From: a virus
Taxonomy: Duplodnaviria > Caudoviricetes
DNA length: 60,006 nt
IMG/VR virus record: IMGVR_UViG_3300044724_005967
Coordinates: 1 to 60,006 of that record
Direction: 5' to 3' (one strand)
A program made the position numbers and the translations under genes. The notes beneath the pieces were generated by a model. It saw only the letters and a list, made by a program, of their open reading frames with translations. It was not told where the DNA came from and searched no databases. Positions 22,607 to 27,331 of this stretch are shown piece by piece (within the stretch, counting starts at the first letter, position 1; every line of letters starts with the position of its first letter).

Positions 22607-23280
22607 TGGCTACTAATCAAGTATTTTCTGTCACACCTGAATTTTTATCAGTAAAAGAATGTGATGATCTCGTAGCTTTATGCGACAAGTATAAAGATAG
22701 ATGGGAAGATGGCGAAGTATCAGATGAGGGTATTGCTGGTTTTGCAGCGAAGGATCCAATTCGATCTTGTAAGACTTGGTTTTTACAAGGCGATTTTGAT
22801 GATGGAGATGAACAAAAATTCCAAAAATTCTATCGTATGATCGATGAAAGATTTAATCGTGTGAAATTAGAAATGGGTTTAGAAAATTGGGATATTCAAA
22901 ATCGAGAAGCATTCCAATATACACACTATGGTGTCAACGATGGATATGGTTGGCACAAAGATACTCATGATGAACCATATCAATCAGAAAATGGTATGGA
23001 TCCTGAATGGGACGGAATGAATAGAAAGTTAAGTATGTCTATTTTTCTTAATGATTTTTCTGAATGGACCGAAGGCAGATTCGAAATAGAAAACGCTTGG
23101 GTACATGGACCTGATGTACCATGGTATAGAGTACATCAATTTAATCCTGAGATCAATCCAGAAATAGCAAAGGGAACAGCGATTGTGTTCCCTTCGTATG
23201 TCCAACATCGAGTAACTCCTGTCCAAACTGGTACTCGTAAGTCTCTCGTTTGCTGGTATATTGGTCCGCCTTGGGTTTAA
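22606..23280 (+). CDS. 2OG-Fe(II) oxygenase
   Basis: WHKD, RKLSMS, GTAIVFPS, HRVTPV, RKSLVCW. Confidence 0.88.
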   Translation: MATNQVFSVTPEFLSVKECDDLVALCDKYKDRWEDGEVSDEGIAGFAAKDPIRSCKTWFLQGDFDDGDEQKFQKFYRMIDERFNRVKLEMGLENWDIQNREAFQYTHYGVNDGYGWHKDTHDEPYQSENGMDPEWDGMNRKLSMSIFLNDFSEWTEGRFEIENAWVHGPDVPWYRVHQFNPEINPEIAKGTAIVFPSYVQHRVTPVQTGTRKSLVCWYIGPPWV

Positions 23281-23753
23281 TTATTCAGCGGATTATCAAG
23301 TATAATCTGAATTTTCTCTTCGAGATCTTTTCTCGTCTGACGTAAATCTGCATCGAGAGTTCTCATTCGCTCATTTACTTTAGACTCAATATTGTAAATA
23401 TCGTCACGCACTTCACGTTGCGTGGTATTTGTTTGATCATCTATCCTTCTTGCAAGGGCCTCGACTTGATCCATATCTTCAGTCAATCTATCCTCTACTA
23501 AATCGAGCTTCTTCTCTACTTGATCGATTGTGACTAGTATTGAAGCCATTGATTCTGATTGTACTGCTAATTCTTGTTCGATACCCGACATGTCAGGAGC
23601 GACATAGGATTCGATTGTCTCTTTCATATTACGGTAATCATTATAAAATTCAAACGCACCCCATGCACCACCACCGAGAGTAGATAGTGCTGTTAAGACG
23701 ATAAACATCTTACCGCCTTTAAAAGTCATACCAGCGAATTCAAACTCCGCCAT
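23277..23753 (-). CDS. Membrane-anchored coiled-coil protein
   Basis: N-terminal TM (FIVLTALSTLGGGAWG) followed by long heptad region. Confidence 0.55.
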   Translation of the reverse strand: MAEFEFAGMTFKGGKMFIVLTALSTLGGGAWGAFEFYNDYRNMKETIESYVAPDMSGIEQELAVQSESMASILVTIDQVEKKLDLVEDRLTEDMDQVEALARRIDDQTNTTQREVRDDIYNIESKVNERMRTLDADLRQTRKDLEEKIQIILDNPLNN

Positions 23754-23928
23754 TTTTTTCTCCCATATAACAGTTGTGATCTTGTGATTTTGCCCAACTG
23801 AGTTCTTGAATAATACGATTATACCATTGCTTATCGTATTCATCTTTTGCTTTATTCATATCAGAAGCTAATTGAGAAATACGAATATCTATATAATCGA
23901 CAATATCTGTCTTCTTGCCTCTACGCAT
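23740..23928 (-). CDS. Hypothetical protein
   Basis: 62 aa, GGAGG SD; WYNRIIQELSW motif. Confidence 0.5.
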   Translation of the reverse strand: MRRGKKTDIVDYIDIRISQLASDMNKAKDEYDKQWYNRIIQELSWAKSQDHNCYMGEKNGGV

Positions 23929-24052
23929 ATCTTGCCTCCTCCGATATATTGTATGCTAGTTTTCTGTCACTCGTAACAATGATGATACGCTTATTTGTAT
24001 CGTATACGATATATCTAATTTGCCCGTGTTTTGTGAGCTCAGCTTTTATCAT
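23921..24052 (-). CDS. 43-aa hypothetical protein (not in ORF track)
   Basis: MIKAELTKHGQIRYIVYDTNKRIIIVTSDRKLAYNISEEARYA; overlaps both neighbours. Confidence 0.5.
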   Translation of the reverse strand: MIKAELTKHGQIRYIVYDTNKRIIIVTSDRKLAYNISEEARYA

Positions 24053-24510
24053 ATGATACTCACAAAGCCTGCAATTAACACACCGCATAATACAAAAAAG
24101 CCGACTATAGATACTACATCAATATAAAATGCTTTTTTACGGGCAGCTGCTTGTGCTGCTTCGATTCTACGTTGACGAATGATGCGTCTTTCTTTCATCA
24201 TATCTTCGTAGAATTGTTGTTGACCAGTGTAAAGCAAAAATTCGTATAATTCTTTTTCGAGTTGCTTTATCTTGTGTCGTGCTGCGGTGACTTGTAGTGC
24301 TTGTGCTTCTACACTACTTCCACCAAATAATGATCCCACCATTGATGGGTTTTTTGCGTGTTGATCTGCCTCTGCTAGTTGTTCTTTCGCATCAAAGAAT
24401 TTGGCAAATACATCGTACATATCCTGGACCTCTTGGCCCTTCTCAATCGCTCCTTTAATCATATTAAATGCAGAACCAGCCATCGACAAAGCGGCGGCTA
24501 TTTCTATCAT
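24049..24510 (-). CDS. Helical protein with C-terminal TM segment
   Basis: MIEIAAALSMAGSAF...; hydrophobic C-terminus. Confidence 0.55.
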   Translation of the reverse strand: MIEIAAALSMAGSAFNMIKGAIEKGQEVQDMYDVFAKFFDAKEQLAEADQHAKNPSMVGSLFGGSSVEAQALQVTAARHKIKQLEKELYEFLLYTGQQQFYEDMMKERRIIRQRRIEAAQAAARKKAFYIDVVSIVGFFVLCGVLIAGFVSII

Positions 24511-24515
24511 TATGA

Positions 24516-25342: not shown

Positions 25343-25346
25343 GATT

Positions 25347-25844
25347 TTAAATCGCTATACAATTCGCCTGAACGATTGCAGTGTATGTACCGCCAGGAAG
25401 TGCTTTGCTAATACCATAATCTGCTTCTGAACTGACTTTGAACCATGTGCTACCTGTATATTCGAGATCAATCTCAGTAGTAGAATCATACTCGATCTTA
25501 CTCGTATCATACGCAGACATCTGAGCATCAGACACAGCTTCTACCGCAGTAGAACCTGTCCATGCAAGTGTATCAGTAAGCGCAGGACTTTGTGAGAAAG
25601 ATGAAGGATGAGTGACGACTGCTTTATATGCATTAGCGATAACAACATCATAACGTACAACAGGCTCTATACCACCATCAGCCGAGTCAGTACTGAGTAC
25701 ACTCGCTGAAGGGTTACCGTAAACACCTTGTCTATCAAGAGTAACAACACACTTAGACTCAACATTTCCTACGATAGGAGCATCGAGTGCTTGTGCACTG
25801 ATAGCTGTCATGGCGATTGCTGCTGCCAGAATTTTCTTGAACAT
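25347..25844 (-). CDS. Exported protein, candidate fimbrial/pilin-like subunit
   Basis: Signal peptide ending AQA|L; IVGNVESKC near N-terminus; C-terminal LPGGTYTAIVQANC. Confidence 0.45.
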   Translation of the reverse strand: MFKKILAAAIAMTAISAQALDAPIVGNVESKCVVTLDRQGVYGNPSASVLSTDSADGGIEPVVRYDVVIANAYKAVVTHPSSFSQSPALTDTLAWTGSTAVEAVSDAQMSAYDTSKIEYDSTTEIDLEYTGSTWFKVSSEADYGISKALPGGTYTAIVQANCIAI

Positions 25845-26725
25845 TAACGTTCTCCTTTAAATTGTGATTTGACTAACTTATCATGTAGTACATCTTGTGC
25901 AATAAGTAAACTTCGACCCCGATTATTTCTAGGCATCGATGCATCTTTGAGTTGAACTGTTTCACGATATACTGTATCAGGCAATTGTTCATAATATTGA
26001 TTAGAGAATTGGTTTAGAGCCATTACTTGATTATGCCTTACGTTATCTTCAGCAATTTGTAATGATCTTTCAACGATACCTAATACTGTCTCGAGATCAA
26101 CCTCTTCTTCATTATCTTCTTCTTTCTCCATATCTTTGCGCTCACGTTCCTCTTCATCTTCGTCGCGCATAGTCATCTCTCTATCAATCTCATCTTGTAC
26201 GAATGTATCATCAAGTGGATCTACAACTTCAACTGATGGAATATCAGGCATTTCAACCTTATATCCTGGACATGATGGATCTGCTTGTGGATCAAAACAT
26301 GTGTCATATTGATATGTGTAAATGACTGATGGATCTACAACGTCACCTACACCTTCCCATACTATTTCTCCGTCTCCCCAATAATCGATAGGTTGTCCAC
26401 CTACACCTATCACCTTGAAGATCGAATTTCCTGGTAAACCTGTCCAATCATCTGTCTCTCGAAAGATGTATCCATCGTCTACCGCATTCTTGTTTTGTAC
26501 AGTAACAAGTAAAGGATCTTCAGCATTTTTTACTGTCGTGTACCTATACAGAACTTGATTAACTTGCAAACCTGTCTGTTGAGGCAAAAGATTCTCCATT
26601 ACCCATGAATATCCGTTCTGCGCAGCATTAGTCGTTTGACCAAAGACTTGCTCAGAGTAGGAGTAAGAGGGCAAGTAAGCCAGCGACACCGCCACTAGCC
26701 ACAGCAGTATCTTTTGTCTGCTCAT
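25844..26725 (-). CDS. Exported protein, beta N-domain plus acidic helical C-domain
   Basis: Hydrophobic N-terminal signal; CFDPQADPSCPGY motif. Confidence 0.55.
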   Translation of the reverse strand: MSRQKILLWLVAVSLAYLPSYSYSEQVFGQTTNAAQNGYSWVMENLLPQQTGLQVNQVLYRYTTVKNAEDPLLVTVQNKNAVDDGYIFRETDDWTGLPGNSIFKVIGVGGQPIDYWGDGEIVWEGVGDVVDPSVIYTYQYDTCFDPQADPSCPGYKVEMPDIPSVEVVDPLDDTFVQDEIDREMTMRDEDEEERERKDMEKEEDNEEEVDLETVLGIVERSLQIAEDNVRHNQVMALNQFSNQYYEQLPDTVYRETVQLKDASMPRNNRGRSLLIAQDVLHDKLVKSQFKGER

Positions 26726-27254
26726 CTATTCCGTCCTTTGGTTTCTCTATTTCTGCATTGTCAGCGCCAGCTGCAAGCCATGCGGCTTTTGCTTCAGCGC
26801 CAATTAAACCATCGTATGGACATGGTGTACCAGCATTCATCATTGCATCGAATACTCTTTCGTCTGTACACATCAGTGACACCGCTGCCACTTTCATACC
26901 CATATCATATAGAGTTTTGGCATTCTTCAGTCGTTCACAGTTATCATCAGTAAATTGTGTACCTGTAGAAATACCGAGAATTTGTGTTTGTACTGCTCCA
27001 GCTACACCAAAAGTACAAAGATCAGAGTTCGATGTATTGATAGTTGGTGTAATCGCAGATGCAGGAGGCGACTTCAGTGTCGTAGTAGTATTACCGTTCG
27101 TTGTAATAGTGCTTGTAGTAGTCGACTCAGTTCTTATTAAATTAGGATCTACAGCTTCTTCTTGTGCCATCACATCAGGCAGCCAAGATACTAACAAAAT
27201 AACACCAATACCGACGCACAAGATTCTGAACAAGCTTTTGTCTAGTTTATGCAT
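26652..27254 (-). CDS. Exported Cys-containing protein with C-terminal TM anchor
   Basis: Signal ending VMA|Q; SPPASAITP..DLC..VQTQILGIS..NCERLK..GMKVAAVSLMC..GTPCP; ends LLALLLLL. Confidence 0.6.
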   Translation of the reverse strand: MHKLDKSLFRILCVGIGVILLVSWLPDVMAQEEAVDPNLIRTESTTTSTITTNGNTTTTLKSPPASAITPTINTSNSDLCTFGVAGAVQTQILGISTGTQFTDDNCERLKNAKTLYDMGMKVAAVSLMCTDERVFDAMMNAGTPCPYDGLIGAEAKAAWLAAGADNAEIEKPKDGIDEQTKDTAVASGGVAGLLALLLLL

Positions 27255-27323
27255 TGTCTTTTACCTATAAAATTATAAATCATCTATATAGGCATGCTGT
27301 AGAATGAACTTCGTTCAAGCAAG

Positions 27324-27331
27324 TATTTATA
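27324..27331 (-). promoter_or_regulatory. T4-type late promoter driving the minus-strand cassette
   Basis: TATTTATA on + equals TATAAATA on -, 70 nt upstream of ATG 27254. Confidence 0.7.

Follow-up and report, generated by a model that had tools for sequence, protein, structure and literature searches.

A nine-gene cassette rich in predicted exported and membrane proteins in a distant T4-like phage has relatives in phage lysis cassettes

A cassette of nine genes, g1 to g9, on the minus strand of the IMG/VR viral contig IMGVR_UViG_3300044724_005967 has relatives that, outside its own T4-like clade, sit in phage lysis cassettes, which is the main new result of this analysis. The whole stretch analyzed here (the window, 60 kb, completeness estimate 33%) comes from a distant T4-like myophage, whose baseplate wedge protein shares 38% identity with its counterparts in Sinorhizobium phiM12-type and Caulobacter Cr30 phages; ribonucleotide reductase and baseplate genes are also in the window. 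Our preferred reading, tentatively held at a probability of roughly 45%, is that the cassette at 23277-27254 would encode a late, lysis-associated periplasmic module with g9 as an i-spanin-like subunit. The formation of a complex, the location of each of its parts and its role in lysis are what we infer from the sequences.

Two sets of relatives carry the link to lysis genes. The first comprised 41 distant loci, of which 6 end before g9 and 7 have less than 1.7 kb of downstream DNA, leaving 28 that could be assessed. In 19 of these 28, a holin or holin-like gene and an endolysin gene lie directly downstream, the order in this distant clade being a six-gene block, a small EF-hand/transmembrane (TM) protein, a holin or holin-like gene and an endolysin. 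Exemplars matched the Pfam families GTA_holin_3TM (7.9e-24 and 1.9e-24), GH19 (4.2e-08) and GH108 (3.3e-30, together with PG_binding_3), and the other holin-like genes of the clade are of two variants that look related but match no Pfam family. The second set, seeded with g9, held 50 assessable loci outside the T4-like clade. An endolysin gene was found downstream in 13 of them, a Lipase_3 gene right after g9 in 10, and an endolysin together with a holin-like gene in 9. Holin-like genes were counted at 22 of the 50 loci: queries of the PF11351 type or related ones account for 7, and two membrane-protein queries without Pfam support for the other 15. Exemplars from this set matched PF00959 Phage_lysozyme (1.2e-10), Peptidase_M15_3 (2.2e-09), PF11351 GTA_holin_3TM (3.2e-22) and Lipase_3 (1e-16). 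Since few types of lysin and holin query were used, all holin and endolysin counts are lower bounds. Among the functions proposed in the initial annotation of this DNA, non-canonical lysis thus gains from the gene context in relatives, and nothing was found in support of superinfection exclusion, adhesion or a receptor decoy.

The same neighborhood could also point to a lysis timer, in which exported proteins sense the periplasm or a superinfecting phage and act on the holin in the manner of T4 RI/RIII or an antiholin. T4 regulates its holin by a secreted periplasmic protein, and many loci have the EF-hand/TM protein between g9 and the holin. However, the module is paired with at least three holin types and four endolysin types, and a specific holin-binding regulator is therefore disfavored. 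Furthermore, three to six conserved exported proteins are many for a timer, and g1 is far more conserved than any adjoining holin, so that we regard a timing function as improbable.

Late expression is suggested by the layout of the operon. The nine genes are spaced between a 5-nucleotide (nt) gap and a 74-nt overlap, and they lie behind the T4-type late-promoter-like octamer TATAAATA (27324-27331, minus strand), which stands about 70 nt upstream of the g1 ATG and is the sole copy in the spacer upstream of g1. Twelve copies of the octamer are present in the window, where 5.7 are expected, and none of 100 shuffles reached that count. The close packing of nine minus-strand genes behind one promoter, as described in the initial annotation, is confirmed by the list of open reading frames (ORFs), their spacing and the single TATAAATA, and the position and enrichment of the octamer support the late type of this promoter. 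In the window's clade, one flank of the cassette has genes for a 2OG-Fe(II) oxygenase and an exonuclease, and the other has small plus-strand genes. The stop codons of g9 and of the convergent 2OG-Fe(II) oxygenase gene overlap by 4 nt (23277-23280), and a terminator-like hairpin of the minus strand (23168-23196) lies inside the 3′ end of the oxygenase gene.

The first five products, all encoded on the minus strand, begin with signal-peptide-like sequences: g1 (26652-27254, 200 amino acids [aa]), g2 (25844-26725, 293 aa), g3 (25347-25844, 165 aa), g4 (24965-25342, 125 aa) and g5 (24516-24983, 155 aa). A heuristic based on N-terminal charge, a 10-aa hydrophobic core and small residues at -1 and -3 was passed by all five, against 1 of the 51 other ORFs of at least 100 aa in the window. 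Their orthologues passed it in 28 of 29 cases for g1, 34 of 38 for g2, 30 of 31 for g3, 18 of 27 for g4, where the choice of start codon is uncertain in some, and 31 of 31 for g5; the signal-peptide features are kept although the N-terminal sequences diverge (orthologues 33-96% identical). The mature part of g1 has four Cys, and g2 to g5 have two apiece (Cys143/Cys152 in g2, Cys32/Cys162 in g3, Cys101/Cys121 in g4 and Cys50/Cys112 in g5), all invariant in the alignments except Cys32 of g3, which is present in at least 90% of rows. Two further proteins carry a hydrophobic segment, at the C-terminus of g6 and the N-terminus of g9. The signal-like starts and paired Cys that had been noted for the first five genes are thereby upheld, as are the two additional TM-anchored helical proteins, namely, g6 (C-terminal TM) and g9 (N-terminal TM and helical tail). 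These features support the prediction that the products of g1 to g5, g6 and g9 are exported or membrane proteins. The initial annotation had gone on to suggest that the operon builds an apparatus in the host periplasm or on the surface; the exported and membrane character of the products stands, judged by their signal features, and for an apparatus neither assembly nor binding is demonstrated.

We also considered that the five proteins could be virion-associated or ejection proteins, with N-terminal hydrophobic segments that do not serve export, as one subclade of relatives adjoins tail-fiber genes and a gene for a large internal-protein-like product. T4-like virions are assembled in the cytoplasm, however, and five canonical signal peptides in a row, with small residues at -3 and -1, invariant Cys pairs of the kind typical of oxidized periplasmic proteins and the lack of any structural annotation in PHROGs all speak for export, making this explanation extremely unlikely.

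The genes of the cassette travel together. Scans of viral contigs returned 17 loci with g2 and 59 with g3, and on the 59 distinct contigs the detected members of g1 to g5 always keep their order on a single strand (59 of 59); 46 contigs show the complete set, and the remaining 13 are cut by the contig end. In the distant clade, where identities fall to 33-52%, a g9 homologue directly follows g5, and g6 to g8 are absent. The g3 family has 858 relatives in a set of 5.8 billion proteins, and a whole-library g3 profile search gave 109 representatives at 50% identity; the 8 of these that were checked, including the three most distant full-length ones, belong to no Pfam family. For g9, the family has at least 6746 proteins at E<=1e-3 and at least 356 relatives on viral contigs, the few names given to them by their sources being plainly automatic and unrelated. 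Among g9-seeded loci, g1 lies upstream of g9 in all 47 that have enough DNA, g3 to g5 being present in 14 and absent in 33. The old core of the block, as judged from these comparisons, comprises g1, g9 and, in the slot of g2, a long exported protein; because g3 to g5 are absent in 33 of 47 loci that keep g1 and g9, they are taken as an accessory insertion, and g6 to g8 appear to be additions of the window's T4-like clade. Genomes of bacterial and archaeal species yielded 9 loci, all in metagenome bins with mixed labels and presumably binned phage DNA, and we therefore see no cellular homologue.

That these genes co-occur elsewhere is thus borne out (59 of 59 colinear contigs; g1 with g9 in 47 of 47), and so is the earlier statement that they form no recognized, characterized system. 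None of the nine proteins has a match above noise in Pfam or NCBIfam, a PHROGs search of all nine returned families of unknown function only, and profile searches of g1 to g5 against PDB sequences gave no relative (best E 0.096). No description of the block was found in literature on pelagiphages, spanins and spaninless lysis, disruptins and chaperone-usher systems in phages, a coverage that leaves out supplements in which it is possibly annotated. The proteins are unnamed in the databases searched, and the cassette matches no described family.

Cultured phages carry the core as well. Neither g2 nor g3 has a relative among 50,697 cultured-phage records, and relatives of the g1 domain occur in 16 such records (including Pelagibacter, Roseobacter, Achromobacter and Ralstonia phages), each match covering less than half of the query. 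In pelagimyophage Mosig, a PF11351 holin (1.6e-05, above the cut-off) directly precedes the g1 homologue, which is followed by genes for an acidic exported protein of 611 aa, for a coiled-coil protein with a TM segment and a C-terminal NPL, and for a second coiled-coil protein that is tail-anchored. Pelagiphage HTVC115P has homologues of g1 and g9 (6e-27 and 4e-27) after its tail-fiber genes, the latter protein being 37% identical to g9, with a 466-505-aa exported acidic protein encoded between them. Roseophage CRP-810 encodes a TM coiled-coil protein and an 86-aa lipoprotein in which one half of the g1 domain is recognizable (hhalign 85%, E 6e-06), followed in the list of its genes by a relative of g1, an exported protein and a relative of g9 (hhalign 92%). 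Two labels in the CRP-810 record (locus L078, OR671924.1) look wrong by sequence: gp51 (5219-5641), called a lysozyme, has the TM segment and coiled coil of a g9 relative, and gp53 (3833-4588), called an OmpA family protein, has no OmpA Pfam match.

The position of the block in HTVC115P, in CRP-810 and in several podovirus-like contigs, directly after tail-fiber and tail-fiber-assembly genes, raises superinfection exclusion or receptor masking, in which envelope components would be modified or blocked against adsorption to the infected cell or its debris, as with T5 Llp or lambdoid Cor. The genes of Llp and Cor occupy the position after tail-fiber genes, and late expression fits the protection of progeny. 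On the other hand, receptor-specific blockers co-vary with the receptor-binding protein, whereas the same proteins, with a nearly invariant g1, are found here in phages with unrelated tail fibers and different morphotypes (T4-like and podovirus-like). No lipoprotein is present either, and we consider exclusion or masking decidedly improbable.

In the preferred reading, a lysis-associated periplasmic module, g9 is the i-spanin-like part. Its ORF spans 23277-23843 on the minus strand, and the most likely start is the internal Met at 23753, since all orthologues begin there, which gives a protein of 158 aa (23277-23753). A conserved, Gly-rich membrane segment (about residues 15-37) is followed by a helical, charged remainder with weak matches to coiled-coil families and by an invariant C-terminal LDNPL motif. 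By its sequence, g9 would have the topology of an i-spanin, that is, a type II protein with an N-terminal TM domain and a helical, coiled-coil periplasmic domain. Like the two-component spanins (lambda Rz/Rz1; T4 PseT.3/PseT.2), the cassette thus has a candidate i-spanin, a place in the lysis cassette of many relatives and a proposed late periplasmic function. Unlike them, it lacks a lipoprotein partner in the window, any Cys in g9 and an Rz-family match, does not stand beside a holin or endolysin in the T4-like clade, and comes with three to six exported partners instead of one.

The module might work as follows. Late expression would be followed by Sec export of the products and then by disulfide formation in the periplasm. 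The resulting periplasmic complex would be tethered to the inner membrane by g9 and, in the window, also by the g1 tail, and would reach the wall and the outer membrane; after the holin and endolysin have acted, it would help to destroy the outer membrane, with g3 to g5 adapting or strengthening its outer side. Destruction of the outer membrane after holin and endolysin is the spanin step in well-studied phages. A heuristic search for lipobox ORFs gave no credible candidate across the 60-kb window or inside g9, and 23 of 32 related loci that bear an endolysin have no lipobox ORF on the same strand. As the window has no lipoprotein partner, it would fall to g1, g2 or g5 to make contact with the outer membrane.

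Several results weigh against this reading. Nine of the 28 loci of the first set, all in one subclade, have no holin or endolysin match; there, a small TM coiled-coil protein with a weak match to a holin PHROG (8.1e-05) precedes g1, after tail-fiber and tail-fiber-assembly genes. The same lack of holin and endolysin matches is seen in 24 of the 50 loci of the second set. Within the T4-like clade of the window itself, none of 11 assessable loci has a lysin or holin match next to the cassette, so that the lysis link for the window rests on homology to the cassettes of other phages. Two relatives that are 89% and 84% complete have a T4-type lysozyme gene roughly 10-40 kb from the cassette, a separation that is expected given that lysis genes are scattered in T4-like genomes; neither has a T-holin or GTA holin match, and the GTA-holin search proves little, being blank in control genomes as well. 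Adjacency to lysis and tail-fiber genes is also typical of unrelated late accessory genes. Moreover, the defining spanin pair appears to be absent, as g9 has no Cys and no o-spanin-like lipoprotein was seen in the window; the Rz family (PF03245) has no match in the nine proteins, the window or the two relatives, other spanin families not having been searched. Seven loci have a separate lipoprotein of 67-87 aa between the lipase and the holin-like gene, which could be the true partner of g9, in which case g1 to g5 would have another role. The three Mosig genes after the g1 homologue were assigned by position and architecture, the g9-like one reaching hhalign 17%, and so was the acidic protein of HTVC115P, with hhalign 11% against g2. 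Finally, the proposed complex has no experimental or binding-prediction support: a prediction with the periplasmic parts of g1, g2 and g5 together with g9 scored 0.00, which counts neither for nor against binding.

The most conserved member by far is g1, in which a signal peptide and a Thr/Ser-rich stretch are followed by a four-Cys domain and a short C-terminal hydrophobic tail. A stretch of about 75 residues that holds the four Cys (about residues 75-150) is near-invariant between clades whose other genes are only 35-55% identical, and a Gly/Ala-rich hydrophobic segment lies between the first and second Cys. The protein matches phrog_20531, a family of unknown function (3.8e-17), and a search for longer fused forms of its domain gave no informative domain fusion. 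Phage T1 gp11, a unimolecular spanin, offers a second comparison: g1 has an export signal and a C-terminal hydrophobic anchor, so that one chain could cross the periplasm, but its signal is of type I with no lipobox, and hence without an outer-membrane lipid anchor, and the C-terminal tail is missing in the g1 relatives of Mosig and CRP-810. The end of g1 and the start of g2 overlap by 74 nt in different frames (26652-26725), the shared DNA encoding the hydrophobic tail of g1 and the signal peptide of g2; distant loci, L041 and L067 among them, retain an overlap of 71-74 nt.

For g2, invariant residues 29-41, which precede Met43, argue that the long form, overlapping g1 by 74 nt, is the one made in the cell. 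Its alignment shows, after the signal peptide, a beta-rich N-domain, then an acidic linker whose length varies and a helical end that is conserved; a search of the Atlas with g2 gave no usable match.

A bolder version of the lysis reading would make the g1-g2-g9 trio, with g3 to g5 as an adaptor on the outer side, a widespread, unrecognized and categorically new machine for outer-membrane disruption that replaces spanins in ocean phages. In this scheme, g9 would be the coiled-coil arm of the inner membrane and g2 an acidic tether, and the Gly/Ala-rich hydrophobic loop of g1, closed by a disulfide, would insert into the outer membrane like an internal fusion loop, so that the two membranes might be fused or torn without a lipoprotein anchor. 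We consider it rather unlikely as it stands; if true, it would explain how many marine phages without recognizable spanins finish lysis.

For the accessory genes g3 to g5, a different kind of function has to be weighed. The AlphaFold2 (AF2) model of g3 predicts a beta-sandwich (predicted local distance difference test [pLDDT] 81.7) with the N- and C-terminal strands joined by a disulfide. Such a protein next to g4 could suggest an usher-less chaperone-subunit system, with g3 as a pilin-like subunit and g4 as a single-domain, chaperone-like partner, which together with g5 would build or hold a periplasmic or surface fiber for adhesion, aggregation or exclusion instead of lysis. The predicted disulfide tie between the terminal strands fits this idea, as do weak, sub-threshold matches of g3 to FimG, CfaB, the PapG pilin domain and an archaeal cannula subunit, and a feature search of the Atlas placed an SCPU-containing cluster at rank 23 (score 0.94, SCPU in 15% of members). 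Compared with chaperone-usher pili (Fim, Pap, Caf, Csu/SCPU), the likeness consists of an exported, disulfide-bonded beta-sandwich beside a small exported beta-rich protein and of a pilin-like motif pattern seen by eye. However, the cassette has no usher, no two-domain PapD-like chaperone and no sequence relation to these systems: neither the usher (PF00577) nor PapD_N (PF00345) was found in the window or in two relatives 84-89% complete, the usher control matching E. coli, and hhalign gave 0.4% for g4 against FimC and 0.5% for g3 against FimA. There is likewise no SCPU (PF05229) or fimbrial Pfam match in g3 or in 8 of its relatives.

The structural matches of g3 point the same way. Foldseek returned no PDB entry at E<=1e-3, its weak pilin matches lying at E 0.012-0.037, and the wide VIA search (best Z 7.6) mixed adhesins, pilins, carbohydrate-binding modules, immunoglobulin domains and viral jelly rolls, with other pilins at Z 5.1-5.4 among many unrelated sandwiches. 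Against BFVD, the model had three matches at E<=1e-3, all to uncharacterized proteins. The likeness of the modeled g3 fold to pilins is within the common beta-sandwich background. As g3 to g5 are dispensable in most g1/g9 relatives (missing in 33 of 47 loci), they are accessory to something else, and we hold a chaperone-subunit function to be unlikely. Taken together, the counts support the spanin-like, lysis-adjacent reading for the core trio, with the pilin/chaperone reading left open for g3 and g4.

The remaining exported proteins are less distinctive. g4 matches phrog_25455, of unknown function (1.2e-4), and its mature form of about 107 residues is one domain at most. An invariant His stands at the predicted first mature residue, in the pattern H-x-x-T-P-x-Y-P (20 of 20 aligned orthologues), which recalls N-terminal-His metal sites; a second invariant His is not present in the alignment. 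g5 has a strand-rich part, a variable loop between two long strands and a C-terminal helix (residues 112-142). The model of the g5 monomer is poor (pLDDT 55) and does not establish a fold, and the structure search made with it (best Z 3.5, no match) is therefore meaningless.

The genes between g5 and g9 are restricted in distribution. g6 (24049-24510, minus strand, 153 aa), a helical protein with the C-terminal membrane segment, was seen only in the T4-like clade, in 15 of 59 contigs. It was tried as a GTA_holin_3TM protein (PF11351) and rejected, having no Pfam match, an hhalign value of 0.2% and a single hydrophobic segment against three TM segments in that family. The small ORFs g7 (23921-24088, minus strand, 55 aa, with an N-terminal CxxCxxC) and g8 (23740-23928, minus strand, 62 aa, poorly conserved) were found in 10 of 59 contigs, at 37-57% identity, and in 3 of 59, respectively, and look to be the least conserved and least certain genes of the cassette.

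Other systems by which phages may act on the envelope late in infection offer further comparisons. Marine T4-like phages with exported or outer-membrane proteins include pelagimyophages and the OM43 phage Melnitz, which carry csgG/csgF curli pore genes with a proposed role in lysis regulation, according to PMC9004378. Those are different proteins in a different gene order, and none of the nine proteins matches CsgG, CsgF or CsgE at E<=1. In phages without spanins, a third lysis step has been ascribed to the disruptin phiKT gp28, an outer-membrane disruptor (bioRxiv 10.1101/515445), and to the mycobacteriophage LysB esterase (PMC5707550). The Lipase_3 gene directly after g9 in 10 of 50 loci is reminiscent of LysB, but disruptins and LysB are single small peptides or enzymes, whereas the cassette encodes several exported proteins, none with an enzyme signature, and a lipase is absent from the window.

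How phages without recognizable spanins, put at about 15% in bioRxiv 10.1101/515445, breach the outer membrane is an open question. The block is abundant and unannotated everywhere, and its carriers include cultured SAR11 and Roseobacter phages. SAR11 and Roseobacter are among the most numerous marine bacteria. If the block is a lysis device, it would govern the release of carbon by viral lysis in the ocean and would add a new class of proteins active on the envelope; as an usher-less subunit/chaperone assembly, it would instead be a new viral use of that mechanism. The presence of the trio in HTVC115P, Mosig and CRP-810 makes its function testable under either reading.

Some neighboring genes of the relatives deserve mention. 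A class-3 lipase gene lies directly after g9 or after its small TM neighbor, inside the lysis cassette, in loci L124 (6723-7457) and L085 (10403-11110), and its product may be a lysis enzyme that degrades lipids in phages infecting Gram-negative marine hosts. The EF-hand/TM protein between g9 and the holin, exemplified by L067 (7776-8096) and found in many loci, has about 100 aa with an N-terminal EF-hand (PF13202, 2.9e-05) and one or more C-terminal membrane segments; it also follows g9 in some T4-like relatives (L006-L008, L017-L018 and L031-L035) and is absent from the window. Two lipoprotein genes were seen, neither of which adjoins a TM coiled-coil gene, both in the 89%-complete relative (G001, L091), namely, one for a 555-aa product with a zinc-protease-like HExxHxxGxxH motif, recognized by eye (13952-15619), and a tightly packed one for a 41-aa product (16987-17112). 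Finally, the slot between g2 and g9 in the 192-kb contig L156 (5639-5968) encodes a protein of 109 aa with Y-N-F as its last residues and a weak, below-cut-off match to Opacity porins (E 0.0016); it may be a small outer-membrane beta-barrel that replaces g3 to g5.

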